From NCBI GenBank assembly GCA_051439425.1, contig JBFRWD010000004.1, positions 1 through 41,108 of the forward strand: 41,108 nucleotides of DNA, read 5' to 3'. The notes below the pieces were generated by a model. That model ran no database searches. It worked only from the letters and a program-made list of their open reading frames with translations, and had not been told where the DNA came from. Below, one piece after another: positions 2,318-36,056 of this stretch (its first letter is position 1; each line of letters starts with the position of its first letter). This DNA is from Synechococcus sp. (GTDB taxonomy: Bacteria > Cyanobacteriota > Cyanobacteriia > Thermostichales > PCC-7336). Both the position numbers and the translations under genes were made by a program.

Positions 2318-2851
2318 CTATAAATGTGCACTTAAAACAGGGTCAATGATAAAATCCCATCCAGTAATGGAGCGAACAACAGTATCGCTTAAGTCGTCTA
2401 TCAAGCCCTGAACCCGCTGCCGTAAAGCCTTTAAATTGGGGAAAGGTTCCCATTTGATGTGGGATTTCAGATGTAGCCACAACCGTTCGATGGGATTGAG
2501 TTCAGGACAATAGGCCGGCTGACAAATGGGGATAATATTCTCAGGCCAATCCAGCTCATCCGGCAGATGAGCTTCCGCCGGGTCGACTTGCATGACGATG
2601 ACGCTATCGGAATAGCGCGCAGAGAACTGGTGAATGAATTGCCCGAAGTGCTCTGCATTGAGAGTGTCAAAACAGTCGAAGTACCATTCGCCGGTCAGTG
2701 GCTCCACCAATCCGCAAAGCCAAAAGGTTTTGCGTCCCCACTGGTAGATGCCTTCTGGTTTGACACCTTTGAGAGTAATCACTCGGCCCGAGCAAGTGAG
2801 CAGTCCCCAGCGGCTCTCGTCCTGGCAGAAGTAGCGCATCGGCTGTCCTGA
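2318..2851 (-). pseudogene. IS630-family transposase, catalytic (DDE) half only
   Basis: Motifs YFCQDESRWGL and QPAYCPELNPIERLW. The frame is cut at 2851 by the IS5 element, and the N-terminal HTH half is not in the window. Confidence 0.85.
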
Positions 2852-3739
2852 GAGGCTGTCTTAAAAGTCAGCAGCTATGCCAGGCGTCTCAGCATGATGC
2901 GTATAGAAGCCAGATAAATCCATGCCTCGGCACTACTGGTTTTGAGTTCGTAGTCTCGATTGAGCCTGCGACACCAGCGCATCCACCCAAACGTCCGCTC
3001 TACAACCCATCGCTGCGGTAGAAGCTTGAATCCCTTCACCTTAGGCGAGCGCATCACCACTTCGAGACACCAGGGCCCCTGTCGCATTACCCAGTCAGCT
3101 AAGGCTGGACCTCGGTAACCGCCATCAACCAATACTTTGACTAAACGCTTCAGATTCACCCATCGTCGAGCCCGCTTGATGAGCTGTTTTAATCCGTCTC
3201 CATCGGCCTTGTTGGCGGCGCTGACCACTACAGCCCGCAGTAGTCCCAAACTATCCACAAGGACGTGGCGTTTACGGCCTTTCATCTGCTTGCCACCGTC
3301 GTAGCCCACAGACTCTGCCACCATGGGAGCCGTAGGAACGGACTGGCTGTCGGCCACCGCCAGACTGGAGGATGAGGGCGGTGGTGCACCCCGACTCGCG
3401 TCCAGGCTCGCAATCGCTCGTGAACCTGAGACCAGGTGCCGTTATCGCGCCAGGTGGCGAAGTAGTGATAGACAGTCTTCCAATTGGGATAGCTTTTGGG
3501 AAGGTAGCGCCAAGGGCATCCAGTCACTAAGACGTAGAGGATGGCATTGACCACTGCATGTAGCTCCACTAGTCGAGGGCGACCACCTGATTTAGCAGGA
3601 GGTAACAGGGATTCAATCAATTACCATTGCAAGTCACTCAGATCGCTCGGATAAGATAATGAGCTCATAGCCAACTCGGTCTGCTTCACTTCAATTGCAG
3701 ATTAAACCTCGTTGGCTTTTCTACTTCTCAGACAGCCTC
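2852..3739 (-). mobile_element. IS5-family (IS1031-like) insertion sequence, inactive copy
   Basis: TIRs GAGGCTGTCTTAAAAGT (2852-2868) and ACTTCTCAGACAGCCTC (3723-3739) match at 15/17. The transposase (ATG 3668 to 2875) reads MSSLSYPSDLSDLQW* with TAA at 3621-3623, has a frameshift near 3365, and carries ADSQS, GYDGGKQMKGRKRH and RWVVERTFGW. Confidence 0.9.
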
Positions 3740-3781
3740 TTAGTTAGCTAATGTTCATTCAGTCTACTTATTCAGATAGCC

Positions 3782-4270
3782 ATGCATAATTTATCCGACT
3801 CTGACTCCGATCGCGAGAGCGATCTTCAACAGGAAATTCTACGGGGTAGGAAGTTTACCCTTTCAGAGGCTATTGCCCGGGAAGCGGGCAGCTTTATGAA
3901 GGGGGAATCCCCCATTCCTAAGTATGTTCAGGCCGAATATGCAGCCAAAACAATCATTACCAAACATCTTACAGATTCAGGTGGAATCTTACAGATTGTT
4001 CTAGGGCGCTGGGTAACAGTTGAATCTCGTATCAGTCGTTATGTAGATGACCCCGTTATGGCGGTTCATGAAACGGTAAAGATGTTGCTTGAACAAAATG
4101 AATTGTTTTCCGAATTTGTTCGCGAAGTTGATATCCAGTGGGGTCAAGTCAACGGTGAGCGTCCTCACTTTCAGCGGTTAGGGGAAAAAGCTCATCCGGA
4201 AGACGAATATAGTCACGAGTCGGTACGCGAGCAGCTGTCAACCTTCCTTCAAAGCTTAACTATTTCATGA
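3782..4270 (+). CDS. Hypothetical protein (162 aa)
   Basis: Clean ATG ORF co-oriented with acr3 and about 50 bp upstream of it. No motif recognised with certainty. Confidence 0.7.
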   Translation: MHNLSDSDSDRESDLQQEILRGRKFTLSEAIAREAGSFMKGESPIPKYVQAEYAAKTIITKHLTDSGGILQIVLGRWVTVESRISRYVDDPVMAVHETVKMLLEQNELFSEFVREVDIQWGQVNGERPHFQRLGEKAHPEDEYSHESVREQLSTFLQSLTIS

Positions 4271-4320
4271 TGTCGCTAGGCCCGCTAATCAATTAAAGAA
4301 CTAGTCGATAGGCAAGATTG

Positions 4321-5475
4321 ATGACAACAGACTCGTCTTCCCCCCCTCAGATGCCCGTTCAGGCCGGGGGAGAACTCAATATCTTCGAGCGATATTTAAC
4401 CTTGTGGGTTGCCCTCTGCATTGGAACTGGCATTTTGCTGGGGCGCACCTTTCCGGGAGTGGCTACAACACTTGAGGCCATGAGCATCTATCAGGTGTCG
4501 TTACCGATCGCAGTCTGCCTCTTTTTCATGATGTATCCCATCATGGTGAAGATTGATTTTTCCCAAGCCAAGCAGGCAGTGAAGACGCCCAAGCCTGTGC
4601 TATTGACGCTGGTCGTCAATTGGCTAATTAAGCCGTTTACGATGGTAATCCTCGCTCAGTTCTTTTTAGGATGGCTGTTTCAGCCCCTGATTACGGGAAC
4701 GGAGGCGATCCGTGGAGTTGAGGTATCGCTTGCTAGCTCCTACATCGCTGGGGCGATCTTGCTGGGGATTGCCCCCTGTACTGCAATGGTGCTGATGTGG
4801 GGCTATCTGTCCTACAGCAACCAGGGGCATACGCTGGTGATGGTGGCAATTAACTCCCTAGCAATGCTGTTTCTCTACGCGCCATTGGGGGGCTGGTTGC
4901 TGTCAGCGAATGACCTGTCGGTACCCTGGGAAACGATTATTTTGTCGGTACTGATTTATGTGGGGCTGCCGCTGCTGGCTGGGGCGGTTTCTCGAACTTG
5001 GATTTTGCAGCATAAAGGCAAAGCCTGGTTCGAGCAGGTTTTTCTGAAGTACCTAGGCCCCATAGCGATCGTTTCTTTGCTGACAACCTTGGTGCTGCTG
5101 TTTGCCTTTAAGGGGGAGCTAATTGTCAGTAACCCATTCCATATTGCACTGATAGCGATTCCACTATTCCTACAAACGAATCTGATCTTCCTGATTACCT
5201 ATGTGGCTGCTCAGAAAATGGGGCTGGCGTACGAAGATGCCGCACCAGCAGCGCTGATCGGGGCCAGCAATCATTTTGAAGTGGCGATCGCGACTGCTGT
5301 CATACTGTTCGGTCTCGACTCTGGTGCAGCGCTGGCAACTGTTGTGGGTGTGTTAATTGAAGTGCCGGTGATGTTGATGCTGGTCGCTTTTTGCAAACGA
5401 ACGGCCTTTTGGTTTAGCCGTGAACCTGACAAGGCGACCTTGAAGGACCCGCGTTGCCTGCATCTGCTGAAGTGA
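4321..5475 (+). CDS. acr3: ACR3-family arsenite efflux transporter
   Basis: Motifs [40 protein letters not shown] and [16 protein letters not shown]; about 10 hydrophobic segments. Confidence 0.95.
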
Positions 5476-6000
5476 GCCAGGGAAGAGCTTACTAAATTAA
5501 CGCTCAATTTTCGATACTTGTGACCATTCTTTGAGCTGTCGCTCAGTTGTAGCGATCTGCAATCCACTACGGAGGGTTTTCTTCTCACCTCTGCTTGTAA
5601 TTTACGGCTTTGGGCTTTTTACCGACTCCAGACCTTAGATCGGATTGCCATCGCATCTTCGATAGGCCATCCATCGGCATACAATGCCAATCATTCTTCC
5701 TACAGTCTCTTGAATTTCTATCCGGTATTTCGCTGAGGACGAGAGAGAGAGCCTCTTCCATTAGCTAGTTTTTTGGCCTGGATGTATTGTGAAAGACCTT
5801 TGAAACCTTGCTGGTTTTATTAAAAAACAAAAAGAATGTATTGATGCATCTGCTGATAGGTGTTGAATGCAACTATATCAATCACTGACTACTTTTTAAT
5901 CCAAAAAGATTTGTAAATTAACACGATTGCTTCGGTCATTAACGACTATGGGCATCCAAAACAGTCCTAGGTTTTAACGCTTCGCTTTATAAACCCGCAA

Positions 6001-8556
6001 ATGCAAACATCTCAAACGACCCGTACCGCCCTGCAATTCAAGGCTCCACTATCCGGCATCTTGATGCCAATCGAATCCGTGCCGGATCCGGTATTCGCTC
6101 AAAAGATGGTTGGCGACGGTATTTCCATTGACCCCATCTCCACTCTCGTCAAGGCTCCCTGCGATGGGGAAGTGATACAGCTCCACCCCTCTCACCACGC
6201 CGTGACCATAAAATCCGCCGATGGGATTGAAATTCTCATGCACGTTGGGTTAGATACGGTTGAACTGCGGGGTAAGGGATTTACGCCAAAAGTGCAGGAG
6301 GGCGATCGCGTCAAAACCGGCGATACTCTGCTCGAAGTCGACATCGACTACGTTGCTCTGCATGCCAAAAGCTTGCTCACCCAAGTGGTGGTGACCAACA
6401 GCGATCGCGTCGCCGAATTCCGTCCAAAATCTGGTGAAGTGAGAGGCGGACAGGATATTGCGTTGGAATTGGTACTTGCGGCTGCTGAAGAAGCCGTTGA
6501 AGGGGCAGGGGGTGAGGTGGCGACGTCGGAGCCGATCGAGATCGGCAATCCACAGGGATTGCATGCCCGTCCGGCGGCGGTGCTGGTGAATTTGGCGAAG
6601 AAGTATGCCTCCCAGGTAGCGTTGCTCCGAGGCAGCGATCGCGCCAATGCCAAAAGTGTCGTGTCCATCATGGCGATGCAGGTGGCCCTGGGGGACACCG
6701 TAACCTTGGAGGCGACTGGTGCGGATGCCAAAGCCGCGATTACTGATTTAACATCAGCCATCATGTCGGGATTGGGGGAGGAAGGGGCGGCTCCGGTGTC
6801 GGCTCCTGCCAGCATTGCCCAGTCCGATCTGAAAGCCCCTCCCCCACAGCCGAAATCTGACGATCCAAACATTATTTTGGGGGTGGCGGCTTCTTCCGGC
6901 TTGGCATTGGGTAAAGCCTATCGGGTACGCCAGCAGCAGGTGACCGTAGCAGAAGTCGGGGAGTCTCCGGAACTGGAGCGGCGGCGGTTGGACGATGCGA
7001 TTGCGCAAGCCAACCGAGAAGTGGAATCTCTGCGTGCCAAAATTCACGGTCAGGGGAATCCTGGCAAGGCGGCTATCTTTGCCGCCCACCAGGAGATCTT
7101 GCAAGACCCCGAACTCATGCATGTGGCCACCAGTACCATCAATAAAGGAAAAAGCGCAGCCTTTGCCTGGCGACAGACGTTCACAACCCAGGCGGAACAG
7201 CTTGCTCGTCTAGATAATGAGCTGTTGGCGGAGCGTGCTAACGACATTCGCGATGTGGGGATGCGGGTGCTGCGGATTATTACGGGCGAGGAAGTCCAAG
7301 CGATCAAATACCCCCACGACAGCATTTTGGTGGCGGAAGATTTGACTCCGTCAGATATGGCCAATCTCGATCGCGAGCGGGTGGTGGGGTTCTGCACGCT
7401 GGCAGGAGGAACGACCTCTCACGTAGCGATTTTGGCCCGCTCGATGGGAATACCGGCGATCGCCGGAGCAGAACCCCGAGTTTTGGAGGTTGCCGATGGC
7501 ACATCCATGATTTTGGACGGTACTAAAGGCAAGTTGAGAATCAACGTTGCCCCGCAGGAGGTGGAACGCACGAAAGAGCGGATTGCCAGACAAAAGGCCA
7601 AGCGGGAGACGGATCTGGCAACCGCCTTCGAACCTGCCATCACCCAAGATGGGTATCGCGTTGAAGTGGTGGCCAACATCGCTAGCCTCAAAGATGCAGA
7701 GGAGGCGATCTCGCTGGGTACGGAAGGGGTGGGTCTGCTCCGCACCGAGTTGGTCTTCATGGAGCGAGCGAATGCGCCTAGCGAAGACGAACAAACGGCT
7801 ATCTACCGCAGCATTGCGGAAGTGATGGGGCCAGACAAGCCGATTATTATTCGCACTTTGGATGTGGGGGGAGATAAACCCTTGCCCTATTTACCGATGG
7901 TTAACGAAGAAAATCCTTTTTTAGGAGAGCGGGGCATTCGGTTTGGGTTCGATCAACCGGAGCTGCAGCGCACTCAATTGCGGGCGATTTTGCGGGCGTC
8001 ATCTGCTGGCCAGCTACGGGTGATGTTCCCAATGATTGCCCGGATTGAAGAGCTGCACATGGCCAAGGCCATGCTTGAGGAAGAGCGGCAAAAACTCGAC
8101 CTGCCCCCAGTGGAGGTCGGCATCATGATTGAAGTGCCCTCGGCGGCGGTAATGGCGGAGCAGTTTGCTAAGGACGTGGACTTTTTCTCGGTGGGCACCA
8201 ATGATTTGACCCAGTACACCCTGGCAATGGATCGCGGACATCCGAAGCTGGCCCCCTTTGTGGACGGTCTGCATCCTGCCGTACTGCGGTTAATCGACCA
8301 AGCGGTGAAGGGGGCAGGTCGTTTTGGCAAGTGGGTGGGAGTGTGTGGTGGAATTGGTAGCGACCCCCAGGCGGTCCCGATTTTGATCGGCTTAGGGGTG
8401 AAAGAACTCAGCGCCAGCATTGCCACGATTCCCGCCATTAAGGCGCAGGTGCGATCGCTGACCTTAGCCCACTGCCAAAAGCTGGCAGCCCAAGCATTGG
8501 GGCTGGAAACCGCTGCCGAAGTGCGGGATCTGGTGCCTTTACCTGGAGATGAATAG
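6001..8556 (+). CDS. ptsP: PTS multiphosphoryl transfer protein: EIIA(Glc family)-HPr-Enzyme I fusion
   Basis: EIIA motifs VPDPVFAQKMVGDG, HAVTI and ILMHVGLDTV. HPr motifs GLHARPAA and NAKSVVSIM. EI motifs GGTTSHVAILARS, GVGLLRTE, RTLDVGGDK, EENPFLGERGIR, FSVGTNDLTQY and GVCG. Confidence 0.95.
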   Translation: MQTSQTTRTALQFKAPLSGILMPIESVPDPVFAQKMVGDGISIDPISTLVKAPCDGEVIQLHPSHHAVTIKSADGIEILMHVGLDTVELRGKGFTPKVQEGDRVKTGDTLLEVDIDYVALHAKSLLTQVVVTNSDRVAEFRPKSGEVRGGQDIALELVLAAAEEAVEGAGGEVATSEPIEIGNPQGLHARPAAVLVNLAKKYASQVALLRGSDRANAKSVVSIMAMQVALGDTVTLEATGADAKAAITDLTSAIMSGLGEEGAAPVSAPASIAQSDLKAPPPQPKSDDPNIILGVAASSGLALGKAYRVRQQQVTVAEVGESPELERRRLDDAIAQANREVESLRAKIHGQGNPGKAAIFAAHQEILQDPELMHVATSTINKGKSAAFAWRQTFTTQAEQLARLDNELLAERANDIRDVGMRVLRIITGEEVQAIKYPHDSILVAEDLTPSDMANLDRERVVGFCTLAGGTTSHVAILARSMGIPAIAGAEPRVLEVADGTSMILDGTKGKLRINVAPQEVERTKERIARQKAKRETDLATAFEPAITQDGYRVEVVANIASLKDAEEAISLGTEGVGLLRTELVFMERANAPSEDEQTAIYRSIAEVMGPDKPIIIRTLDVGGDKPLPYLPMVNEENPFLGERGIRFGFDQPELQRTQLRAILRASSAGQLRVMFPMIARIEELHMAKAMLEEERQKLDLPPVEVGIMIEVPSAAVMAEQFAKDVDFFSVGTNDLTQYTLAMDRGHPKLAPFVDGLHPAVLRLIDQAVKGAGRFGKWVGVCGGIGSDPQAVPILIGLGVKELSASIATIPAIKAQVRSLTLAHCQKLAAQALGLETAAEVRDLVPLPGDE

Positions 8557-8622
8557 CCGTCGAACAATCATTGATGTCCATCATTGTTGCCCGTATTCAC
8601 CCGTTCGGGCCACCCAACTTAC

Positions 8623-8648
8623 ATACGCATTTTGAATACGCATTTTGA
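8623..8648 (+). repeat. Perfect 13-bp tandem duplication just upstream of the ptsG ribosome-binding site
   Basis: ATACGCATTTTGA at 8623-8635 and 8636-8648. GAGG follows at 8647-8650 and the ATG at 8659. Confidence 0.9.
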
Positions 8649-8658
8649 GGATTCTGGT

Positions 8659-10590
8659 ATGACGAGTGCCGCGCAGACTCCTAACGCGCAACCCCAACCC
8701 CCCTCCAAGCTGCAGGAGCAGTGGAGCAAAGCGTTTGGCTTGCTGCAAAAAATGGGCAAGTCTCTCATGTTGCCCGTCTCTGTCCTGCCGGTGGCGGGGA
8801 TGTTACTTGGATTGGGCAGCGCCCGACTGATCGAAATTCAGAAGCTCGAAGAGGGCGTTTTAGAGAGCGCCAAATTTGATTTTCTGCCTGCTGCCCTGGC
8901 AGAAATCATGAAAAGCTCGGGGGATGCCATATTTGCCAACCTACCTGTGATTTTTGCGGTTGCAGTTGCCATTGGTTATACGGGCAATGACGGGGTGTCG
9001 GCCTTGGCGGCGATCGTCGGGTTTGTGGTTTTTCTGGCCTCCCTAGGGGTGTCCTCCGTCATTTTTCACGAGTTGGACCCCAGCGCTCTAAAACCCGTCA
9101 TGGGGATTCCTTCATTGGATACGGGGGTCTTTGGTGGTTTGATTGTGGGCTGTGTAGCGGCCTATATGTTCAACCGTTTTTTTCGCATTAAGCTGCCTCA
9201 ATATTTGGGATTCTTTGCGGGGAAGCGATTCGTACCGATTATCACGTCACTGGCAGCGATCGCCGTTGGCATTTTATTCAGCTTCATTTGGCCCCCGATA
9301 GGCGGAGCGATTGATCGGTTTGCTGAGGCAGCAGCGGAAGGGGGGAACGTCCCGATTACGGTCGCCATCTATGGCTTTGTGGAACGATTGCTCATTCCCT
9401 TCGGCCTGCATCACGTCTGGAACGTGCCGTTCTTCTTTCAAATTGGTTCGTTTGTCGATCCAATTACTGACGAAGTGGTAACGGGGGACATCAACCGTTT
9501 TTTTGCCGGGGACCCAACCGCTGGAATCTTGGGGGGGGCCTATTGGTTCAAGATGTTTGGATTGCCTGCCGCGGCGATCGCGATGTGGCATAGTGCTCGA
9601 CCCGAGAGTCGCAAAGTCATCGGCGGCATTATGATCTCTGCGGCCCTAACGTCTTTACTGACAGGAATTACCGAACCGATCGAGTTTTCCTTCGTGTTTG
9701 TCGCTCCGGTGTTGTACCTAATGCACGCGGTACTGGCGGGGTTTGCAGATTTCTTGTTTGCCAGTCTAGGGGGACGAATGGGGTTCACCTTCTCCCACGG
9801 GGCGATCGACTTTATTTTGTTCTATGGCTTAGGTACTCGGGTGTGGCTGATTCCCTTGCTGGCTCCCCTGTTTGCCGCCTTGTACTACTTTAGTTTTCGC
9901 ATCGTTATCCGGCGGTTTAACCTCAAGACCCCCGGTCGAGAACCGAAATACAGCGACGAAGAGTCAACGGTCAACCTGCCCCAAGATGCGGCAGCCATGT
10001 CCAAAGAACTGACGCTGGCGTTTGGGGGACGCAGCAATATCGAGAGTTTGGACGCCTGCATTACAAGGCTGCGCATCGGAGTAAAGGATATGAGCAAGGT
10101 CAACATTGCTCGTCTCAAGGCATTGGGGGCGTCGGGAGTATTGCAGGTGGGGAATAATGCCCAGGCCATTTTTGGTCCGCGTTCCGAAAACCTCAAAACG
10201 GACATGGAGGAATACCTCAAAACTGCCGGTCCAGAGGCGGATGCGGTCGTTGCCCCAACCCCCGAACAATCCATGACTGTTGAGGCAACTCAACCACAGA
10301 TTGCAGCCGATCCTGCAGCTGTGGAAAAGGCACGCGGTATGGTTGCGGGCATGGGTGGGGCAGAGAATATTTGCAGCGTGGATGCGGTGGCAATGACTCG
10401 ACTGCGGGTGGAACTGGACGACTCAAAGGCATTGCAAGAGCAAGCGCTAAAGCAGTCTGGTGTTAAGGGGTTAATGCGGGTGGAAGATCGCGTATTGCAT
10501 CTAGTCGTGGGATTGAATGCAGACCAATATGCGACCGAAATTGCCAAGCTTTGTAAAGAGGGCGCTGCCCCACCTGCGGGTCACTCATAA
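8659..10590 (+). CDS. ptsG: PTS glucose-family permease EIICB with an extra C-terminal EIIB-like domain
   Basis: PtsG-type motifs GKSLMLPVSVLP, FFAGKRFVPI, PFGLHHVWNVPF, FKMFGLPAAAIAMWHSARPE and LTGITEPIEFSF. EIIB motif LDACITRLR; second copy VDAVAMTRLR. Start set at ATG 8659 because of the GAGG RBS. Confidence 0.92.
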   Translation: MTSAAQTPNAQPQPPSKLQEQWSKAFGLLQKMGKSLMLPVSVLPVAGMLLGLGSARLIEIQKLEEGVLESAKFDFLPAALAEIMKSSGDAIFANLPVIFAVAVAIGYTGNDGVSALAAIVGFVVFLASLGVSSVIFHELDPSALKPVMGIPSLDTGVFGGLIVGCVAAYMFNRFFRIKLPQYLGFFAGKRFVPIITSLAAIAVGILFSFIWPPIGGAIDRFAEAAAEGGNVPITVAIYGFVERLLIPFGLHHVWNVPFFFQIGSFVDPITDEVVTGDINRFFAGDPTAGILGGAYWFKMFGLPAAAIAMWHSARPESRKVIGGIMISAALTSLLTGITEPIEFSFVFVAPVLYLMHAVLAGFADFLFASLGGRMGFTFSHGAIDFILFYGLGTRVWLIPLLAPLFAALYYFSFRIVIRRFNLKTPGREPKYSDEESTVNLPQDAAAMSKELTLAFGGRSNIESLDACITRLRIGVKDMSKVNIARLKALGASGVLQVGNNAQAIFGPRSENLKTDMEEYLKTAGPEADAVVAPTPEQSMTVEATQPQIAADPAAVEKARGMVAGMGGAENICSVDAVAMTRLRVELDDSKALQEQALKQSGVKGLMRVEDRVLHLVVGLNADQYATEIAKLCKEGAAPPAGHS

Positions 10591-10685
10591 GAATAGTCTC
10601 TCCTAGTAGCTCCTATAGCTGCAGCCGGTGCTGACAACACAAAGGGCTAGGTGCTGCGAGCATGGAGTGACTAGCAAGATCTACC

Positions 10686-12488
10686 GAAACTGCCAGAATT
10701 GAGGGCGCAAATCAAGGGATAGAAATGAATGGTGCTATTTCCATATCCTTGGCCTCCAAGCGGCCAAAAAAAAAACAGCTTCCAATTCTTAAACCCTCTG
10801 CCGAAATTGAGCCTGTTGCTCGGATAAGCACGCGTATTCTGTCATTTGCCTCAGATACATCAAAAGCTGATTTATTTCATCAAAAACTTCGCAAAGCGGG
10901 TTGGCTGATTTGAAGGCTCCAAATCCCATCATTGGATAGTATCTGCCCTAAACTAGACGATGACTCGGCTCTCAACCACAGTGTGATAACGCCAACTGGC
11001 GGCCAGCCGTTGGAGCTCAGCCAGTGCATCCTTGGCACAACTAAAGTCAGTTTTGCCCTGACGGCGTAATTGCTTCTCGGCCAATAGCCGCTGTTTCTCC
11101 ACTTGCTTGTTGAGTTGCTGGCAGTCGCTCTCAAGCCGAGCTTGGTTTTCTACAACCACCCAACGCTGCTTGACATCTCCATAAGTGCTACAAACACTGC
11201 TGAGACGATAGCCCTCTCGCTCATTGGCGTAGAAGGCCTCAGACGGCAGTTGGGTGACTAACTCCTGAGCGGAGGCAAGGGTTAATGGGACACGGGTAAT
11301 CCAACGCAGTGACCCCAGTAGGGCTAAGCTCTCGGCGCTATACAGGGCGCTATCGGCTACGAGTGTTCCCTCTACATCCCACTGCTCGCAGAAGGTTTTG
11401 AACCGTTGCCCAAACACGGCTTTATCCGATTGATTACCACTAGCCACCTCAAACGCCAACGGCACTTCGCCATCGTTACAGCAAATCGTTTCGATGATGA
11501 ACTGTTTCAGGTCGGGACGGTGGTCTTTTGAATAGCCATGGGTGATTTGGAAGCAACCCTCACTGTCCTCTCCCTCTTCGTACGCTCCATGCACACTCAC
11601 ACTGCTGCTATCGAGGGGGTATATCTGCACGTCTAAGCCCATCGTTCGATATGCTTCCACCGCAATCAGGCTGAATAGCTGGCTAGGGCCGTACTCCCAG
11701 ACTTGATCCAGCAGTCGACCCAGATAATCATCATTCAGGTGGTCTGCTTCGATTCCTTCTCCCAGTAAGTGACTGGTCGCCTTACCCACGAAGAAGCTTT
11801 CGTACAAGTACAGTGGCGCACTGACAAAGCCCAATCCATTCAGAATCATTGCTTTGATTCCTTGACCGGGACTAACTATTTGCTGTGGATGAGTGCCCAG
11901 GCTCTCATTGACACGCTCCTCTAGCTTTATTTCGTCTACAATTCCGGAAATGATTCCTAAGTGATTTAGGTCTTCGACACGCATCCTCTCGTTCGGGGTC
12001 AAAAAGCGCTCACTACTTAATTTCCCAATTCTCTTCCACAACATGTGGAATGAATGTTTTATCCACATACAAGTTGCGGTTGACTGTTCCTCGAAGTTTA
12101 ACTCGCAACTGATGGATGAAGATTGGAAAGAATCTTCCAGCCCAATCCCTTAAAGTTTTGTGAGTGAACTCGAAGCCACGTAGCAAGAAGAATTCCACCT
12201 GATTGCGCAAGCTGAGCTTGGATTACACTCGACTGAACAGGACATAGAAGACAATGTCGGTATAGACTTCGACGAAAGTGAAGGGAGTTCCTGTTCGTTC
12301 GTTGAAGGTGCGCTCGCAGTTCTGACAGCGAAAGACTGGGTAACCAAAATTGGTCGTGCGTTTGAGACGAGTAATGCTGCCAGATGTGCAATGGAGACAG
12401 TTCATTCAGGGCGAGCAAGTACTGGGGTAAGACTGCGTAGCCTAGCAGACTGATGCTCCTCGCTGAGATCTCAGATCTGACAGAATCT
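10686..12488 (-). mobile_element. Degenerate IS6-family element interrupted by an IS1634-family element
   Basis: N-terminal pieces at 12405-12055 read MNCLHC...FRCQNCERTFNERTGTPF and FFLLRGFEFTHKTLRDW...LYVDKTFI. The C-terminal piece at ~10945-10790 reads RYYPMMGFGAFKSANPLCEVFDE...AQFRQRV. The end motif CTGACAGAATC is at ~12478-12488, with a degenerate partner at ~10686-10703. Confidence 0.75.
10953..11984 (-). pseudogene. IS1634-family transposase, 3'-truncated (343 aa)
   Basis: Motifs DLNHLGIISGIVDEI, MILNGLGFVSAPLY, LNDDYLGRLLD, ITHGYSKDHRPDLKQF and VADSALYS. It ends abruptly at the junction with the IS6 C-terminal piece. Confidence 0.88.
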
Positions 12489-23525: not shown

Positions 23526-26291
23526 ATGAGCCACAGCCCAACCGATACCGCCGCCAATACCTACGACTACGACGTGTTTATCTCCTACAGCTCTGCTGAT
23601 AAGAAGTGGGTGCGAGGGGAACTGCTGACGAGGCTGCGAAAGGCGGGTCTAAGGGTTTGTATTGACTATGAGGATTTTCGACCAGGGGCACCCGCGATTA
23701 AGGAGATGGAGCGGGCGGCGATGACAAGTCGAAAGACTCTGCTGGTGCTAACGCCTAATTATTTGAAGAGTGGCTGGACGGAGTTTGAACGGTATTTGTT
23801 GCAAACCCAAGATCCGACTAATACGGAGCTGCGATTGCTGCCTGTATTGAAGGAGGCTTGTGACCTGCCGCCGAGCATTAGCTATCTGAGTCATGTCAAC
23901 TTTACCGACCCGGAAGAACTGGATATTGCCTGGAAACAGGTTTTTCGAGCGTTTGGAATTGTAGAAGGTGAAGCGGCACCACCGCAGGAAGAGACACCGC
24001 ATCAATGGTTTCTGGCTCACCCCTATGGGATGCCGCCGTACTTTACGGGGCGCACCGCCGAGCGACAACTACTGAGTAAATGGTTGAATCATGGAACCCA
24101 GCCATTGCTGGTGCTGCGGGCTTTGGGGGGCTTTGGCAAGAGTGCGCTGACCTGGCATTGGCTGCTGCACGATGTAGAAGAGCGGGATTGGTCCGAGGTG
24201 GTGTGGTGGAGCTTCTACGAAGAGAAAGCGGGGTTTGATAATTTTGTCTCTGCCACGTTGGCCTACTTAAAACAAAAGCCAGAGGGCTTGAATCCGTCAG
24301 AGCGGGTAAGGCGGTTATTGGAGTATTTGCAGCAGCATCGGATTTTGTTGGTGCTAGATGGGTTTGAGCGGGAGCTGCGGGCCTATGGCAACTTGGGGGC
24401 GGCCTACCAGGGAGATGGGGAACGGGACATCGCCGATGCGGGGCGCGATTGTATTAATCCGGGGGCGGAGTGGTTTTTGCGGAATTTGGCGAGTTTGCCG
24501 AAGCTGCAGGGCAAGGTGCTGATGTCTACCCGGCTGCGGCCACGTCCGGTGGAGGTGACTGGGGGGGAGCTGCTGCTGGGCTGTCAGGAGGAAGAGCTGA
24601 CGCAGATGCAGGCGGCGGATGCGGTGGAGTTTTTTGAGGTGCAGGGGATCAGGGGTAATCGTGGGGAGATTGAGCAGGCTTGTGGGGTCTATGGGTTTCA
24701 CCCGTTGAGTTTGCGGTTGCTGGCGGGGCTGGTGATCAAGGACTTGCGCAATCCGGGGGATATTCAGGCGGCGCAGCGGCAGAATTTGACGGAGAGCCTG
24801 GTGCAGCGGCAGCACCATGTGTTGGAGCAGTCCTACAACGGTTTGAGCTTGGATGGGCGGAAACTGCTGAGTCGAATTGCCTGTTTTCGCAGTCCTGTGA
24901 CCTTTAAGGTGCTAGCGGCGTTGGCGACAGAGGAGTCCGATCTAGAGTATGCGCTGCAGGATTTGCTCGAGCGGGGACTCGTGCAGCGGGAAGGTAGGCG
25001 ATTTGACCTGCACCCGATTGTGCGGCGCTATGCCTATGACCGCATGGGCAGGGCAGAACGCAGTAGCGCCCATGGCCAACTGCGGGACTACTTTGCAGCA
25101 GTGCCAGCGGCGGAGCGAGTGAAGACGCTGGATGACCTGGTCCCGGTGATTGAGCTTTATCACCATATGGTGCGGGTTGGGCAGTATGACGAGGCGCTTA
25201 AATTGTTGCAAGAGCGCTTGATGCCTCATCCTCTTTACTTCCAACTCGGAGCTTACCAACAATGCATCGAACTCCTCCGTGCCCTCTTTCCCCAGGGCGA
25301 AGCCCAGCCCCCCCAACTCCAGTCTGAGGGTGACCAGAGTTGGACGCTGATCGAGCTGGCCAACAGCTCCAGCCTCAGCGGCCAGCCCGCGCAGGCTGTG
25401 CCCCTGTTTGAGCAAGCTGCCTCTCTTTACGAAAATGAGCCAGACGAGAATACTTCAAAACGCAGAGTGGCGATCTGCCTGGTAAACCTGGCTGATGATC
25501 AATTCAAAATCGGTGCCTTACAAGCCGCCGAAGTCAACCTGCGCCGTGCGATCGCCCTCGGCCAGGAGATTGAGAATGAGTTCCAGGAGGCGGTGGGGCA
25601 CTCAGAATTGGGGCCACTGTTGGCTTATCAGGGAGACTGGGGAGCAGCGGCAGAGGAGTTGGATCGGGCACTAGAACTATTTGGGAAAGTGAATACTGTT
25701 CAATATCAAGTCGTAACATGGAGCTATCGAGCTTTGAGCGCCTTGCTGCGGATCCGATCGCCCCAAACCTCCGTTCCACAGCGGACTGAACTTGCCGCCA
25801 CCGCCCTCGCTGCCGCCCAGCGTTCGATCACCCTTGCCGATGAATTTGCCCGCACCAGTTTCCCTGTGAAACAAGACTACGCCCGCGCCCACTGGTTCCT
25901 TGGTGCCGCCTACCGCCTCACCTACGATCTCTTGCAGAGCGACCACCACCTCAACGAAGCCCTCCGCCGCTCCCGTGCCATCAACTTAGTTGAAGTTGAA
26001 GCCGATATCCTGCTCGACCTCGCCCGCCTCCGCCGAGACCAGAACAATCTCCCCGAAGCCCACCGCCTCGCCGAAGACGCTCGCGCCATTGCAACCCGCA
26101 GTGGCTACGTCCTCCAAGGGGCAGATATTCACCTATTTTTGGCAGAGCTAGCCCAGGCAGCGGGCAACCTGCCCGAGGCGCAGACTTTGGCCCAGACGGC
26201 GTTGCAGTTGGCCACCTGTGATGGCGGCGAGTTTGTTTACCGGGTCGCTTACGACCAGGCTGAGGCAATGCTGTTGCAGCTAGGAGGATAA
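23526..26291 (+). CDS. TIR domain - STAND (NB-ARC-like) NTPase - TPR protein
   Basis: TIR motifs YDVFISYS, DFRPG and SGWTEFE. NTPase motifs FTGRTAE, Walker A GGFGKS, Walker B LLVLDGFE, FHPLSL and FDLHPIVR. Helical TPR-like C-terminal third. Confidence 0.88.
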   Translation: MSHSPTDTAANTYDYDVFISYSSADKKWVRGELLTRLRKAGLRVCIDYEDFRPGAPAIKEMERAAMTSRKTLLVLTPNYLKSGWTEFERYLLQTQDPTNTELRLLPVLKEACDLPPSISYLSHVNFTDPEELDIAWKQVFRAFGIVEGEAAPPQEETPHQWFLAHPYGMPPYFTGRTAERQLLSKWLNHGTQPLLVLRALGGFGKSALTWHWLLHDVEERDWSEVVWWSFYEEKAGFDNFVSATLAYLKQKPEGLNPSERVRRLLEYLQQHRILLVLDGFERELRAYGNLGAAYQGDGERDIADAGRDCINPGAEWFLRNLASLPKLQGKVLMSTRLRPRPVEVTGGELLLGCQEEELTQMQAADAVEFFEVQGIRGNRGEIEQACGVYGFHPLSLRLLAGLVIKDLRNPGDIQAAQRQNLTESLVQRQHHVLEQSYNGLSLDGRKLLSRIACFRSPVTFKVLAALATEESDLEYALQDLLERGLVQREGRRFDLHPIVRRYAYDRMGRAERSSAHGQLRDYFAAVPAAERVKTLDDLVPVIELYHHMVRVGQYDEALKLLQERLMPHPLYFQLGAYQQCIELLRALFPQGEAQPPQLQSEGDQSWTLIELANSSSLSGQPAQAVPLFEQAASLYENEPDENTSKRRVAICLVNLADDQFKIGALQAAEVNLRRAIALGQEIENEFQEAVGHSELGPLLAYQGDWGAAAEELDRALELFGKVNTVQYQVVTWSYRALSALLRIRSPQTSVPQRTELAATALAAAQRSITLADEFARTSFPVKQDYARAHWFLGAAYRLTYDLLQSDHHLNEALRRSRAINLVEVEADILLDLARLRRDQNNLPEAHRLAEDARAIATRSGYVLQGADIHLFLAELAQAAGNLPEAQTLAQTALQLATCDGGEFVYRVAYDQAEAMLLQLGG

Positions 26292-28574: not shown

Positions 28575-29078
28575 ATGACGGATCTCAATCTGCAGCTACG
28601 GTACTCCCGTGGCTTTAGCACTCTTGAAGTCATCGCCACTTTAGTGATTGCTGGCATTTTGGCGTCCATAGCTGGTTTCGCATTCTTCGGGTTGAGAAAT
28701 CCATTGGGGAATGCCACTGAAGAAGTCGCCAATGCCCTCAAATATTCGCGGTCGGTGGCGATCGCAACGACCTCTTCCTGTCGAGTCAGAACGACCTCCG
28801 CCACTCAACTATTGGTTGAATGTTCGAATACTTGTGCGGCCGCACCCGCAACTTGGGAACTTGCCCCTGCCAGTCCGAGGTTGGATCTGGATGAAGTTAC
28901 AGTTTCGGAAGTGAATGGAGCGGCATTGGTGGCTGGAGGAACGGTTGTCTGTTTTGACAGTCGAGGAGCTGCAAATACTGCCGCATCACTAGAATTGTCA
29001 TTTGCAAATGGTGGAGTGACATCCACCAGCGACGTTGATGTTTTGCTCGGAGGAGCTGTTGACGTCACGTTCAATTGA
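28575..29078 (+). CDS. Type IV minor pilin, FimT/GspH-like
   Basis: Prepilin site RG|FSTLEVIATL; ALKYSRSVAI; FDSRG. Confidence 0.85.
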   Translation: MTDLNLQLRYSRGFSTLEVIATLVIAGILASIAGFAFFGLRNPLGNATEEVANALKYSRSVAIATTSSCRVRTTSATQLLVECSNTCAAAPATWELAPASPRLDLDEVTVSEVNGAALVAGGTVVCFDSRGAANTAASLELSFANGGVTSTSDVDVLLGGAVDVTFN

Positions 29079-29163
29079 ATCCAAGTGCCCTCAGATTCTC
29101 TGATGTGGGCAACCTTAACGTATCTATATTTGCGAACAGGAATTGAACCTGGGAGCCAGAGTT

Positions 29164-29667
29164 ATGCCAAAGATAGACCGAGATCTCAGCTTGCTTCGCA
29201 CCACACTCCCCACAGTGACCCACTCCAGTCGGGGGCAATCGTTACTTGAAGTTGTAGCTGCGACCTTGATTTTATTCATTGGAGTGACAGGGGCTTCAAG
29301 CGGTTTCCTAAACTTTGCACTGCAAAATCGTAGAACTGAGCAATCGACTGGGGCCGTATCTGCAGCCCGAACCGTGCTCGATCGCTTGCGTTTGGAGGAC
29401 ATTGCAACGTTGCCCGATGGTGGCGATCGGCAAATTTGTAACCCAGCCGATGATTATGTTTGCCAAGCATTCAGCCCTGGTCTAATTGATGTGGGCTCGG
29501 TTGTTCTGACATTCTGCCCAGACTTTGCTAACGACCTAGAATATTGCGATCCTGCTAACCCTTCTCTCCGCCATGTGTTGGTCGAAGTTTACGAAAATGA
29601 TGGTGAAGGTGGGGCTGAAATCACCTTTAATGCTGAAACCGTATTTTCTGAATTGCGCGAACTGTAG
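29164..29667 (+). CDS. Type IV minor pilin, PilV-like
   Basis: RG|QSLLEVVAATLIL followed by a hydrophobic helix; second gene of the cluster. Confidence 0.78.
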   Translation: MPKIDRDLSLLRTTLPTVTHSSRGQSLLEVVAATLILFIGVTGASSGFLNFALQNRRTEQSTGAVSAARTVLDRLRLEDIATLPDGGDRQICNPADDYVCQAFSPGLIDVGSVVLTFCPDFANDLEYCDPANPSLRHVLVEVYENDGEGGAEITFNAETVFSELREL

Positions 29668-29690
29668 TAGTTCAAGTGAGGATTAATTTG

Positions 29691-30653
29691 ATGTTTCTAA
29701 AGCTCCGACCTTACGTTTTTTCTACTGCAGGATACACATTACTAGAGCTAATCATTGCTGCCACACTGGGGGTCGGTGTGATTAGTATTTCAGCCACAGC
29801 GATCTTCTTCAATCGAAATTTATTACTGAGAGATGGGGCTAGGGTGGAGGTCAATCAAAGCCTTAGAACCTCGCTAGACATTATTGGGGCAGATATTCGC
29901 CAGGGAGGAGAAAACTTAATTCTCAGTGATTTTCCGGTTATCGAATTATTGGATAACGCAAGAAATGGCCAAGATATTTTAGTGATTCGAACCGGTACCC
30001 CACTCGATATCCTAACCATATGTGCCGATGCTAGCGGTACCGATCTTCTCGTCGCCGATACCAGTGTTGGAGGCGTTGCTGACTGCCCTTCAACGTTACG
30101 TAGTCTGGACCCGGCCGATCTACTTCCAGATAACTTATACAACTGGCAACAATATCGTCTGCAGCAGGTGGCGAATGGTGAGCCTGCAGAGGCATATATT
30201 TTCGATGCTGACACCCGAGATGGCGAGTTTTTCACCTTCTCTGACGAAATTCGCAATCCCAGCAACCCTGGAAACGATCCATCTACGTATTCGATACGAA
30301 GTTCATCCGGATCGTGGAGCGGTACGTACGATGCTGCTGGCACGCGACCGATAATTGCTGTTATTACCGAGCAGCGCTATTCAGTCGATGACCAAGGATT
30401 CCTGACCGAACAAGTCAACGGAGGAGTGGATAGTCGGCTAGTCTCTGACATTCAGGATTTTCAGGTGCGCGTTCTGTTGCAGGATGGCTCGGAGCTAGAC
30501 GCCTTTGGTTCTAATGTCGGAGATGATTGGTCAAACATTCAAGCCGTTGAAGTAACCCTTTCTGCATCATCCGAGTTTGCTGCTGGGCGCGAGATTGATA
30601 ATACGTTTACTTCCAGCTACCTTCCCCGGAATGTATTGTCGTTTCCGCGATAA
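29691..30653 (+). CDS. Type IV minor pilin, PilW-like
   Basis: AG|YTLLELIIAA; LRTSLDIIGADIRQGG; C-terminal YLPRN. Confidence 0.82.
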   Translation: MFLKLRPYVFSTAGYTLLELIIAATLGVGVISISATAIFFNRNLLLRDGARVEVNQSLRTSLDIIGADIRQGGENLILSDFPVIELLDNARNGQDILVIRTGTPLDILTICADASGTDLLVADTSVGGVADCPSTLRSLDPADLLPDNLYNWQQYRLQQVANGEPAEAYIFDADTRDGEFFTFSDEIRNPSNPGNDPSTYSIRSSSGSWSGTYDAAGTRPIIAVITEQRYSVDDQGFLTEQVNGGVDSRLVSDIQDFQVRVLLQDGSELDAFGSNVGDDWSNIQAVEVTLSASSEFAAGREIDNTFTSSYLPRNVLSFPR

Positions 30654-30697
30654 TCCCATCACGTGAATAATTGCCCATTCCCATTGTTATATCCGTT

Positions 30698-32737
30698 ATG
30701 AACCGCTCATCCTTCAGCACTAAATTTGTTCTACATGTTGCCAGCGCCCGCAGGCAGTCTCGGGGCTATTCTCTCGTGGTTGCGATTGGAACGATCGTTG
30801 TGCTGTCCACCTTGCTAGCGTCTTACTCTGTGGTCAGTAAATTTGAGTCTTTGACGGCTACTAGCTCCGAGCAAAGTGGGGCTGGGTTTTATGCTGCAGA
30901 AGCAGGGTTGAACTTGCGGGCAGATGTGGTCAGAGGCATATTCGATGACTTCGATATTCCAACTGGCACTTCGGAAGATATTTCAGTCGTAGGTCTGCCT
31001 TGTCTGGATGGAGTTGGAGGAACCGACGATTATTCTTGTATTAACTATGAATTTCAGGACTTCACCACTCAAACTGGATTGGCGTTTGAGGATCTTTCCA
31101 ATATTGTCATTCCTCCTGGAGAGCCTTTTCAGTTCTTAAATGCCCAAGAATTTAGCTATTTGGCTTCCGCCATATCCTATCGAAATGGAGATGTTGATAG
31201 CCCTCAAGCAATTTTGGGCATGAACTTTCTGAATAGAAGCATTCCCATGTTCCAATTCATGGCCTTTTTTGATAAAGACTTAGAAATCAGGCCAGGTTCC
31301 TCCATGACATTGAACGGTCCACTTCATGCGAATGGCAATATTTTCTTAAACGCCCAGGGAGGTTCGTCAAATCCTTTGACGATTAACGATCGCATTTCGA
31401 TCGGAGACTTCCCCGATGGAACGCCAGGAAATATCTACCGCGTTTCTAAACACAACAGTACTCTCAGTACTTGCACTTCAAATTCAGTGTTGCTTGAAGA
31501 CAATAACGGTGTCCTAGCCGCTATTCCTTGCAGTACTGCACCAGTAACGATTACTGCCAATCTCGACCAACAAATAGCGACTGGATTTCCGAGGTTAGAA
31601 GTTCCAAATAACTCGGATTTTAGTGTCGGGGCAGCAGGACAGTACTGGACGTCTGCAGAGTTGCGCATAGCACTCAACGTGGCCACCTCTTCCATTGAGG
31701 CTCGAACCGTGTCGAATACCGTCAATGCATCTCGCACTGTTCTGTTCTCGGCTGGTGGAGCCTGTAATGGCACGTTCACCGATTCCACATCGTTTTACAA
31801 TGCGCGCGAAGCTGACTTCATCGAAATGCTTGAAGTTGACGTGAACCAATTACTGGACTGTATTAACACCAATAGTGGATCGTTAGGTTTTGGGCTGGAT
31901 GACAATACTCAAGGGGGCCTAGTTATCTATCTAACTGTTGATGGTCCTCTTTCCAATGCCGTCAACAATTACGGAGTGAGACTGCGGAACGGCAGCGATT
32001 TGAGAGCAGCAAATGTTGAAGGATTAACAATAATCACCGACCAAGCGGTCTATATCCAAGGGGATTACAACACTGTCGGGTGGGTCCCTGCTTCGGTGAT
32101 TGGAGACTCCCTCAATGTCCTGTCAAATGCTTGGAGTGATTTTCGGGATGATGGAGATGGTGTGGATTATGGAGTGACAACATCAGGTGGTGGTGGTGGT
32201 GACGACGATGACGATGACGATGATGGTGGCGGTGGGGGAGGAACCGGCAGTATTTTTGCGTGCTCGGGCCTGACACATGCGAATTGCCTCCCAGCTGAGC
32301 GCCTGGCCACAGATACGGCAATTTTCGCAGCCTTTCTGGCAGGAACAACCTCAACCGGATGGGCAGAAGGTGGTTTGAATACCGGAAGTTACAACGGTGG
32401 CATGCACAACTATCCTCGACTCCATGAGATCTGGACGAGCCGTATTGATGCCATCGATCAGTACAATAGCTCGTTCTCTGGCTCGCTCTCTACTTCAGGG
32501 GTTCCGGACGATCAAACACTGACGCTAGTCACATCATTCATTAGTCTGCAGCAGCCAGATCATGTTGATGGTTTATGGCAACAGGGTTCAGACTCTGGTG
32601 CTATGTGGTGGTATCAACAGCCCATTCGCAATTTCAGCTTCGACGATCGCTTCAGAGATCCCAACCAGCTCCCTCCCATGACCCCTCAAGTAACCTACCT
32701 TCAGCAGCAACTATTTGTGAGAAATTTCAATCGATAG
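30698..32737 (+). CDS. Large PilX-like minor pilin / putative pilus tip protein
   Basis: RG|YSLVV lacks Glu5, as in PilX/GspK. Has FYAAEAGL and a large Cys/Gly/Asn/Asp-rich C-terminal region. Confidence 0.78.
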   Translation: MNRSSFSTKFVLHVASARRQSRGYSLVVAIGTIVVLSTLLASYSVVSKFESLTATSSEQSGAGFYAAEAGLNLRADVVRGIFDDFDIPTGTSEDISVVGLPCLDGVGGTDDYSCINYEFQDFTTQTGLAFEDLSNIVIPPGEPFQFLNAQEFSYLASAISYRNGDVDSPQAILGMNFLNRSIPMFQFMAFFDKDLEIRPGSSMTLNGPLHANGNIFLNAQGGSSNPLTINDRISIGDFPDGTPGNIYRVSKHNSTLSTCTSNSVLLEDNNGVLAAIPCSTAPVTITANLDQQIATGFPRLEVPNNSDFSVGAAGQYWTSAELRIALNVATSSIEARTVSNTVNASRTVLFSAGGACNGTFTDSTSFYNAREADFIEMLEVDVNQLLDCINTNSGSLGFGLDDNTQGGLVIYLTVDGPLSNAVNNYGVRLRNGSDLRAANVEGLTIITDQAVYIQGDYNTVGWVPASVIGDSLNVLSNAWSDFRDDGDGVDYGVTTSGGGGGDDDDDDDDGGGGGGTGSIFACSGLTHANCLPAERLATDTAIFAAFLAGTTSTGWAEGGLNTGSYNGGMHNYPRLHEIWTSRIDAIDQYNSSFSGSLSTSGVPDDQTLTLVTSFISLQQPDHVDGLWQQGSDSGAMWWYQQPIRNFSFDDRFRDPNQLPPMTPQVTYLQQQLFVRNFNR

Positions 32738-35983: not shown

Positions 35984-36056
<73 letters not shown>

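Follow-up and report, generated by a model that had tools for sequence, protein, structure and literature searches.

The window analysed here is a whole contig of 41,108 bp (JBFRWD010000004.1, hereafter C4) from the draft genome of a Synechococcus sp. (GCA_051439425.1). It carries two adjacent forward-strand genes, ptsA and ptsG, which together probably form a complete, self-sufficient phosphoenolpyruvate (PEP):sugar phosphotransferase system (PTS) of the glucose family, drawn from a cyanobacterial clade of proteobacterial-type descent, as judged by comparison of sequences. There is next to no doubt that both genes are real, intact and of cyanobacterial provenance. An earlier note, made from the letters of this stretch alone, had described two intact, co-oriented open reading frames (ORFs) for a fusion of Enzyme IIA, HPr and Enzyme I (EIIA-HPr-EI) and for a PtsG-like EIICB permease, and ORF, Pfam and NCBIfam analyses recover both of them in place.

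The fused donor protein PtsA

The first gene, ptsA (6001–8556, forward strand), encodes an EIIA(Glc)-HPr-EI multiphosphoryl transfer protein of 851 residues, an assignment on which ORF, Pfam, NCBIfam and BLASTP analyses agree. The EIIA(Glc) domain (residues 12–136; 6034–6408) matches PF00358, PTS_EIIA_1, with 153.8 bits, scores 135.6 bits on TIGR00830 against a cut-off of 97.5, and carries the phospho-histidine H81. The HPr domain follows (residues 177–254; 6529–6762), with H188 as its phospho-histidine and a PF00381 score of 84.9 bits against a cut-off of 23. Enzyme I comes last (residues 292–845; 6874–8535), with the phospho-histidine H474 and the catalytic cysteine C782; it scores 560.4 bits on TIGR01417, whose curated cut-off is 341.7, and Pfam finds the PEP-utilisers_N, PEP-utilizers and PEP-utilizers_C domains (PF05524, PF00391 and PF02896) across residues 294–820.

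BLASTP alignment with the E. coli K-12 proteins equates H81 (in LMHVG) with Crr H90 and H66 with Crr H75, H188 (in GLHARP) with HPr H15 and S219 with HPr S46, and H474 (in TSHVAI) with EI H189 and C782 with EI C502, while the cysteine in the DACITR motif of PtsG corresponds to the active-site cysteine of E. coli PtsG. Each of the four phospho-relay motifs picked out in the earlier note therefore falls on a catalytic residue of the E. coli system. The six PtsA residues H66, H81, H188, S219, H474 and C782 are invariant across an alignment of 19 sequences, and identity to the E. coli counterparts amounts to 41% for EI (over 572 residues), 34% for HPr and 46% for Crr.

The PtsG permease and its second EIIB-like domain

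The second gene, ptsG (8659–10590, forward strand), encodes an EIIC-EIIB-EIIB' permease of 643 residues, again by ORF, Pfam, NCBIfam and BLASTP evidence. The longest ORF begins farther upstream (8584–10590, 668 residues; PTS_EIIC at 257.4 bits and two PTS_EIIB stretches in Pfam). The true start is probably the ATG at 8659, which corrects the earlier note, because the exact 643-residue protein occurs in an NCBI-derived protein collection and the 668-residue form does not; a GAGGA motif lies 7 nt upstream of this ATG. The EIIC membrane domain spans 8755–9741 (PF02378, 259.8 bits at these coordinates), and the EIIB domain with its phospho-cysteine (LDACITRLR) spans 9910–10176 (TIGR00826; residues 443–531 of the 668-residue form).

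On the glucose IIBC models, PtsG scores 679.1 bits against 591.8 for TIGR02002 and, by a narrow margin, 656.9 against 647 for NF008301; two other cyanobacterial PtsG members lie above the TIGR02002 cut-off and below that of NF008301 (601.4 and 644.7). The NagE model TIGR01998 gives 493.2 bits, below its cut-off of 553.2, as compared with 712.5 for E. coli NagE and 599.2 for a protein from a genome of the phylum sample that belongs to another class (G091), and the NCBIfam models for MalX, alpha-glucoside and trehalose permeases likewise return scores below their cut-offs. In BLASTP comparisons PtsG shares 54% identity with its E. coli namesake, across all 477 residues of the latter, and 39% with NagE, and its best match among solved structures is the E. 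coli PtsG EIICB (8qsr, E = 4e-165). The residues C467, E339 and H251/H252 align with their counterparts in E. coli PtsG, and these residues and the motifs GLHH and GITEP are invariant in 28 sequences.

The permease ends in a second EIIB-like domain, here termed EIIB', which the earlier note had missed. This C-terminal domain (residues 556–634 of the 643-residue form; 10324–10560, forward strand) corresponds to the second PF00367 stretch and is 33% identical to the IIB domain of E. coli PtsG (E = 3e-9), and at the position of the phospho-cysteine it has none (VDAVAMTRLRV). A Cys-less EIIB' is found in 114 of the 120 top database matches, the other six having no second motif under the pattern used and at least two of these six being partial proteins, as well as in 18 of 19 non-cyanobacterial (proteobacterial-type) long forms. 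Being shared in this way, the missing cysteine goes back to the ancestor of the long-form group as a whole and is no sign of decay in the window copy.

To what use such a domain might be put was approached by predicting the complex of PtsA residues 1–265 (EIIA and HPr) with PtsG residues 545–643 (EIIB') in three runs alongside three controls. The EIIA-EIIB' model reached a score of 0.82 as against 0.00 for the best of the three controls, with contacts that were 100% alike between the three runs and a partner pLDDT (predicted local distance difference test) of at least 87. It thereby passed a calibration mark that 116 of 157 solved complexes attain, as against 2 of 215 mismatched pairs; these counts are rough in the present setting, where alignments of our own were supplied. 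The confident contacts involve residues 19–20, 26, 28, 44, 46–47, 83, 115–126 and 146 on the EIIA side, and the loop 577–581 together with residues 583 and 603–619 on the EIIB' side. A related IIA:IIB complex from E. coli has already been solved (1o2f), and the pass may for this reason reflect likeness alone. The model is compatible with the hypothesis that EIIB' may dock the fused donor without itself taking part in catalysis.

A probably self-contained system and its proposed mechanism

The earlier note had called the pair a self-contained module, and a survey of the genome supports the description: profile searches return a single EI N-domain, a single HPr and a single EIIC. Apart from the domain in PtsA the genome yields no HPr match, nor does it yield a second EI N-domain, which is consistent with a pair that would work without general EI and HPr; no EIIA-2, EIIA-Ntr or HPr kinase was found either. 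EIIA, HPr and EI are fused in one protein whose gene lies directly beside that of the EIICB permease.

By homology with the E. coli enzymes, PEP would phosphorylate H474 in the EI part of PtsA, and the phosphoryl group would then move within the same polypeptide from H474 to H188 of HPr and on to H81 of EIIA. From H81 it would pass to C467 in the EIIB domain of PtsG, and from C467 to the sugar crossing EIIC, such that a sugar-6-phosphate would be released inside the cell. The physiological role may be the scavenging of sugar in the dark or under mixotrophy. As for the sugar itself, glucose is the somewhat favoured candidate, by virtue of the equivalog scores, the 54% identity to PtsG as against 39% to NagE, the placement of the permease in the tree described below, and the missing nagA gene: in this genome, estimated to be 96% complete, no protein exceeds the nagA cut-off (best 28.1 bits against 225.65).

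Distribution across cyanobacteria

A phylum-wide sample of 401 genomes, the window genome included, was searched for PTS components. EIIC domains scored above the cut-off in six of the 401, four of them of glucose type, one of Nag type and one of fructose type. A search with the PtsG protein matched five genomes of the sample, three belonging to the same class with 65–79% identity and a fifth belonging to another class with 40% identity, the last of NagE type and set among nagA, SIS, GntR and TonB genes. The two-gene order is kept in all four of the other matching genomes, and the neighbouring genes vary; in one of them, a single-contig genome of 5.5 Mb, the pair lies a few kb from psaF, a ferrochelatase gene and tsaD. 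The soluble EI N-domain is more common, occurring above the cut-off in 35 of the 401 genomes (37 at E ≤ 0.001), of which 26 fall in one family (26 of 45 sampled). That PTS permeases are rare in the phylum, as the earlier note had it, is accordingly borne out, but to call the PTS absent would be too strong for the soluble parts.

Four of these EI loci were annotated: three encode EIIA(Man)-HPr-EI fusions of the DhaM type with no adjacent permease gene, and one is a fruB-fruK-fruA cluster. The DhaM-like fusions (L095, L097 and L098, in genomes G098, G029 and G172) are about 837 residues long, and one lies directly upstream of a Dak1 gene. The fructose locus (L096; G029:C1:1544000–1558000) is a complete PTS cluster that combines an EIIA(Fru)-HPr-EI gene with genes for a PfkB-family kinase and an EIIB'BC permease beside a pyruvate phosphate dikinase gene. 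A nag cluster of proteobacterial appearance (L010; G091:C39:1–12517) occurs in a genome of another class of the phylum, for which contamination is estimated at 5%; the cluster encodes an amidohydrolase, an SIS protein, a NagF-like fusion, a NagE-type EIICB, a TonB-dependent receptor, a NAGPA-domain protein and a GntR/UTRA regulator.

A wider comparison drew on the 120 best 90%-identity clusters of a protein database, which are 62–83% identical to the window PtsG. Organism names are attached to 25 of these 120, and all 25 are cyanobacteria, among them Leptolyngbya, Nodosilinea, Planktothrix, Rubidibacter, Aphanothece and Kovacikia; cultured holders are Nodosilinea sp. E11, Kovacikia minuta CCNUW1, Planktothrix serta PCC 8927, Rubidibacter lacunae KORDI 51-2 and Leptolyngbya sp. 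Heron Island J. Many of the top clusters already bear the NCBI label "glucose-specific PTS transporter subunit IIBC". The uniqueness implied by the earlier note is thereby not borne out: every organism-named protein among the 120 best matches is cyanobacterial, and automatic annotation as a glucose PTS is already in place. Glucose-family PTSs in oxygenic phototrophs are uncommon (about 1% of sampled species) but recurrent.

Origin of the pair

Outside the phylum, the nearest EIICBs are 49–56% identical to the window PtsG and come from Chromobacterium, Paraburkholderia, Propionivibrio, Jeongeupia, Iodobacter, Azospirillum, Steroidobacteraceae, Opitutus, Humidesulfovibrio, Anaeromyxobacter and others. 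In 18 of these non-cyanobacterial loci a full-length or almost full-length EIIA-HPr-EI gene lies directly upstream on the same strand, and in two further loci this gene is cut off by a contig end. The flanking ORFs scanned at 13 long-form loci say little about the substrate for the most part; genes for isoamylase and glycogen phosphorylase lie near one of them, in Paraburkholderia. Two Azospirillum loci (L025 and L027) pair a PtsG-scoring long-form EIICB with a divergently oriented, distantly related EIIA-HPr-EI gene, a hint that parts of the module and its substrates have been reshuffled.

In a PtsG tree of 60 rows, all 18 cyanobacterial rows form one clade (SH-aLRT support, that of the SH-like approximate likelihood ratio test, of 100), whose sister group (94) is the clade of long forms (99), most of them proteobacterial; the enteric and Vibrio PtsG proteins come next, with the Bacillota PtsG proteins outside these and NagE as the outgroup. 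The PtsA tree of 23 rows likewise places all five cyanobacterial rows in one clade (99), nested among proteobacterial-type rows that are mostly from Pseudomonadota; this clade adjoins two rows from poorly classified metagenome-assembled genomes (MAGs) and then the Chitinibacteraceae (100). The inner topology of the PtsA tree is the same as that of the PtsG tree, and therefore the pair appears to have travelled as a unit. Taken together, the trees make the cyanobacterial clade look derived from a proteobacterial-type module that had the same gene order and the same EIIB'. The direction of transfer in both depends on a NagE/NagF-like outgroup, and the Cupriavidus necator sequences discussed below are not among the rows.

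The horizontal acquisition proposed in the earlier note is borne out in part. The ultimate origin looks proteobacterial in both trees, but a fresh transfer across phyla is supported neither by the nearest relatives, which are cyanobacterial at about 80% identity as against 49–56% for proteobacterial proteins, nor by the match in G+C content (GC) and in G+C content at third codon positions (GC3) to housekeeping genes of the contig. The values for ptsA (GC 0.570, GC3 0.624) and ptsG (0.537 and 0.595) resemble those for carA (0.554 and 0.643) and ureG (0.568 and 0.618) on the same contig, the whole genome having a GC of 0.5135; the idea that unusual composition might betray a recent foreign origin was accordingly rejected.

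Within the cyanobacterial clade, the PtsG tree separates lineages that taxonomy unites. Rubidibacter and Aphanothece, both Aphanothecaceae by NCBI family, lie on opposite sides of the basal split, as do Heron Island J and Kovacikia of the Leptolyngbyaceae. Such a pattern points to one older entry into the phylum followed by transfer among cyanobacteria, with the reservation that NCBI cyanobacterial taxonomy is imperfect. A bolder scheme is conceivable and remains doubtful, namely that a sparse, phylum-wide clade of self-contained glucose PTS modules moves by within-phylum transfer between benthic, mat-forming and filamentous lineages, where it would support PEP-driven, ATP-sparing scavenging of sugar by oxygenic phototrophs, in dark or anoxic mats for instance, with EIIB' serving as a dock for the donor as opposed to a relic.

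Accessory status and genomic setting

Among close relatives the pair is patchy. It occurs in two of the four genomes of the genus and in none of the 26 other genomes of the order, real PtsG matches being confined to two of 31 close relatives, the window genome included. The second match within the genus, 84% identical over PtsG residues 490–639, is truncated where its contig ends, and its flank is not that of the window. No match was found in the complete single-contig genome of the same genus or in the other three genomes of the family, and no real match in 23 genomes of the order's other family.

In the window, the pair sits in a block of about 7 kb (3741–10701) that also encodes a 162-residue protein and an ACR3 transporter and is bounded by repeats recurring on other contigs of the genome. 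The left border repeat (3603–3740) recurs on contigs C178 (93%) and C77, and the right border repeat (10702–10971) on six other contigs. Between them lie, on the forward strand, the gene for the hypothetical 162-residue protein (3782–4270; no Pfam or NCBIfam family) and that for the ACR3 arsenite efflux transporter (4318–5475; TIGR00832, 414.4 bits against 282.8), followed by ptsA and ptsG. The region upstream of ptsA holds a short dispersed repeat of about 100 bp (5547–5655), with nine other copies at 74–84% identity on other contigs, which may perhaps be a miniature mobile element. Fragments of three insertion sequence (IS) families, IS630, IS5 and IS1634, flank the block at 2318–3357 and 10953–12068; the latter is an IS1634-family transposase fragment of 371 residues on the reverse strand (NF033559, 240.5 bits, profile positions 2–334 of 483; DUF4277). 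The pair is thus an accessory trait within the genus, carried on a repeat-bounded block. Its immediate donor was probably another cyanobacterium, since this block has a native-like GC.

The genome from which the window comes comprises 4.8 Mb in 182 contigs, with estimates of 96% completeness and 1.1% contamination. That its host is a cyanobacterium, as the earlier note had assumed, is confirmed by four full psbA/psbD-type matches in the genome, where Synechococcus elongatus alone among 14 control genomes also matched, and by carA, all of whose named matches are cyanobacterial, led by a cyanobacterial MAG (90%), a MAG of Synechococcus (82%) and Synechococcus sp. PCC 7336 (77%).

Two sequencing runs cover the block. 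The probable source run, a marine sediment metagenome (X1), yields exact pieces of the contig from 3125 to 14500 at an even depth of 10–15. A run from another study (X2) covers 3738–10561 at about 97–98% identity (about 98% over the 162-residue protein gene), keeps the ACR3 gene linked to the PTS genes, and diverges at both ends, its contigs parting from the window at 3738 on the left and running out in loose ends at 10561, 10781 and 10829 on the right. Because X2 breaks away on both sides, the block of the 162-residue protein, ACR3, ptsA and ptsG exists in a close relative with other flanks. Among the 40 X2 differences listed of 355, all 13 that fall within ptsA (8004–8310) are at third codon positions. 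Read continuity toward carA and ureG, a point raised in the earlier note, is partly borne out: the depth of X1 is even across the block and its right flank, but no exact X1 piece among those listed bridges 10672–11193 (224 more lie beyond the list, and Logan contigs are short). For this reason the listed pieces give no independent bridge from ptsG through the IS1634 fragment to the carA side.

Alternative readings

Several observations weigh against a working, self-sufficient glucose PTS. Specificity appears labile within the glucose family: two long-form EIICBs of Azospirillum score even higher as PtsG than the window protein does (733 and 728.6 against a cut-off of 647), and one of these stands beside SIS and amidohydrolase genes in an arrangement resembling an amino-sugar operon, the flanks being annotated in one of the two loci; because a PtsG-scoring EIICB can sit in such a nag-like context, the label given by a hidden Markov model does not settle the substrate. 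The genome also has a Sugar_tr gene of the major facilitator superfamily (MFS) elsewhere (G000:C77:58898–60205, reverse strand, 189 bits), so that the PTS need not be the main route for sugar. The pair has no linked gene for a regulator, a glucokinase or any other sugar function, and upstream of ptsA the window and four relatives have no conserved NtcA (GTAN8TAC) or CRP-type site. The two trees come from quick searches and carry no support values other than SH-aLRT, of which the 94 for the sister grouping of PtsG lies below the starring threshold, and the PTS block is joined to the carA/ureG side through an IS fragment on the probable source run alone. As for other signals, the upstream regions of the same five genomes share no 9-mer, a promoter scan of 5400–11000 returned three promoter-like sites where 4.5 were expected, none of them on the forward strand upstream of ptsA, the same scan gave no terminator-like site after ptsG, and Rfam at gathering thresholds found one tRNA (35984–36056) in the whole window and no riboswitch or leader near the PTS genes.

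The most serious competitor is a working PTS for another sugar of the glucose family, be it N-acetylglucosamine, glucosamine, maltose or another glucoside. Such a substrate is rather unlikely, and what lends it weight is the Azospirillum context just described, the 493 bits that the window PtsG still attains on the NagE model, and the fact that the studied system of the same architecture, nagF/nagE of C. necator, takes N-acetylglucosamine (PMC3222305). Yet the NagE, MalX, alpha-glucoside and trehalose models all stay below their cut-offs, nagA is missing above its cut-off, the clade groups with the enteric and Vibrio PtsG proteins and not with NagE, and no amino-sugar genes adjoin the pair in the window or in four other cyanobacterial contexts. 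One might instead suppose that the module is mainly sensory or regulatory, reporting on the PEP/pyruvate ratio or on sugar availability, and not nutritional. Many bacteria keep PTS parts for regulation, Brucella being an example (PMC2937029), a non-phosphorylatable EIIB' could offer a regulatory surface, and the genome has another candidate sugar transporter. However, regulatory PTSs usually come without a permease, and the members of this clade retain a complete EIIC with all of its conserved motifs, the EIIA is fused into PtsA and so is not free for other targets, and neither EIIA-Ntr nor HPr kinase was found in the genome, which together make a chiefly regulatory role improbable.

It is very improbable that the pair is a recently arrived passenger, unexpressed or decaying, for although it is patchy within the genus, is flanked by mobile elements and has no recognisable forward-strand promoter upstream, both ORFs are intact with every catalytic residue kept, the listed X2 differences within ptsA fall at third positions, and the clade is conserved at 62–83% identity over the 120 best-scoring 90%-identity clusters listed. 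Slimmer still is the chance that the block belongs to another organism of the metagenome and entered the contig by chimeric assembly or contamination. A draft of 182 contigs with some estimated contamination, in which IS fragments and repeats mark sites of possible assembler mis-joins on either side of the block, would permit such an error; set against it are the cyanobacterial closest relatives of both PtsA and PtsG, the agreement of GC and GC3 with host genes, the even X1 depth across the block and right flank, the ptsG end of 84% identity in a genome of the same genus, and the closed cyanobacterial genome that has the pair near psaF.

Other features of the window

Three further features of the window lie outside the PTS block. 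Between ureG/ureD and carA, a 921-residue protein that begins with a TIR domain and also has TPR repeats (23526–26291, forward strand) may serve in defence or signalling. Four forward-strand ORFs at 28575–32737 encode a pseudopilin resembling GspH, two proteins that fall in no family and a 688-residue protein with a short HpsA-like stretch, a run that may represent a pilus or hormogonium-polysaccharide cluster. Near the contig end, in a stretch of low GC (about 0.42), lie genes for two Bestrophin-like domain proteins on opposite strands (36998–37804, forward; 38783–39598, reverse).

Relation to known systems and significance

The window genes are an ordinary glucose-family PTS of a known two-gene architecture, already labelled as such by annotation pipelines. 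They share with the E. coli glucose PTS (PtsI, PtsH, Crr and PtsG) the same four phospho-carriers and the same catalytic residues. They differ from it in that EI, HPr and EIIA form one polypeptide in the order EIIA-HPr-EI, with no general PTS genes elsewhere, that PtsG has a 16-residue insertion near its N-terminus and the Cys-less EIIB' of about 100 residues at its C-terminus, and that no Mlc-like regulator lies near the pair. Their nearest kin outside the cyanobacteria are the proteobacterial long-form ptsA-ptsG modules, which have the same gene order, a fusion of about 850 residues and an EIICB-B' with the Cys-less domain, and which score as PtsG; these form a clade separate from the cyanobacterial one in both trees and, to our knowledge, are uncharacterised as well. 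A permease with a duplicated, non-phosphorylated EIIB' that is paired with a multi-domain fused donor is also known from the fructose system of E. coli, FruA (EIIB'BC) with FruB. Unlike the window PtsG, FruA belongs to the fructose family, and its B' domain lies at the N-terminus and is of another fold family (PF02302).

An experimentally studied system of this organisation is that of C. necator (Ralstonia eutropha) H16, in which nagF and nagE encode a fused EI-HPr-EIIA and an EIIBC and reportedly work independently of general EI and HPr (PMC3222305). This system resembles the window pair in being self-contained and encoded by two genes; it differs in its N-acetylglucosamine substrate and in the porin gene that lies with it, whereas the window permease scores below the NagE cut-off and above those for PtsG. 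The nagF and nagE names in a 2026 endosymbiont paper (PMC12903740) refer to ABC (ATP-binding cassette) permeases and are unrelated.

Within cyanobacteria, the 'Nostoc azollae' 0708 genome was described as having a PTS "lacking in most cyanobacterial genomes" that was proposed to import host sugar (PMC2900214), and the protein of this Azolla cyanobiont figures as a fructose-specific IIC in a 2022 review (PMC10095879). A 2023 paper states that the PTS was not found in Synechococcus elongatus PCC 7942 (PMC10562401). The other annotated EI-bearing cyanobacterial loci, three of the DhaM type and one for fructose, are unlike the window pair in that none is of glucose type. Searches of the full-text literature, a body that largely leaves out subscription journals and excludes supplements, turned up no paper on a cyanobacterial PTS of the glucose type.

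The value of these observations lies less in the single window than in the unstudied physiology of the cyanobacterial clade and in its conserved EIIB', and the presence of cultured holders among the database matches opens the question to direct tests. In the engineering of phototrophs, so compact a pair of genes could find use as a portable cassette for sugar uptake. Sugar uptake in cyanobacteria is by textbook account a matter of MFS and ABC transporters; a complete PEP-dependent PTS of the glucose type in phototrophs would add a third route, one that ties uptake to the PEP/pyruvate node.

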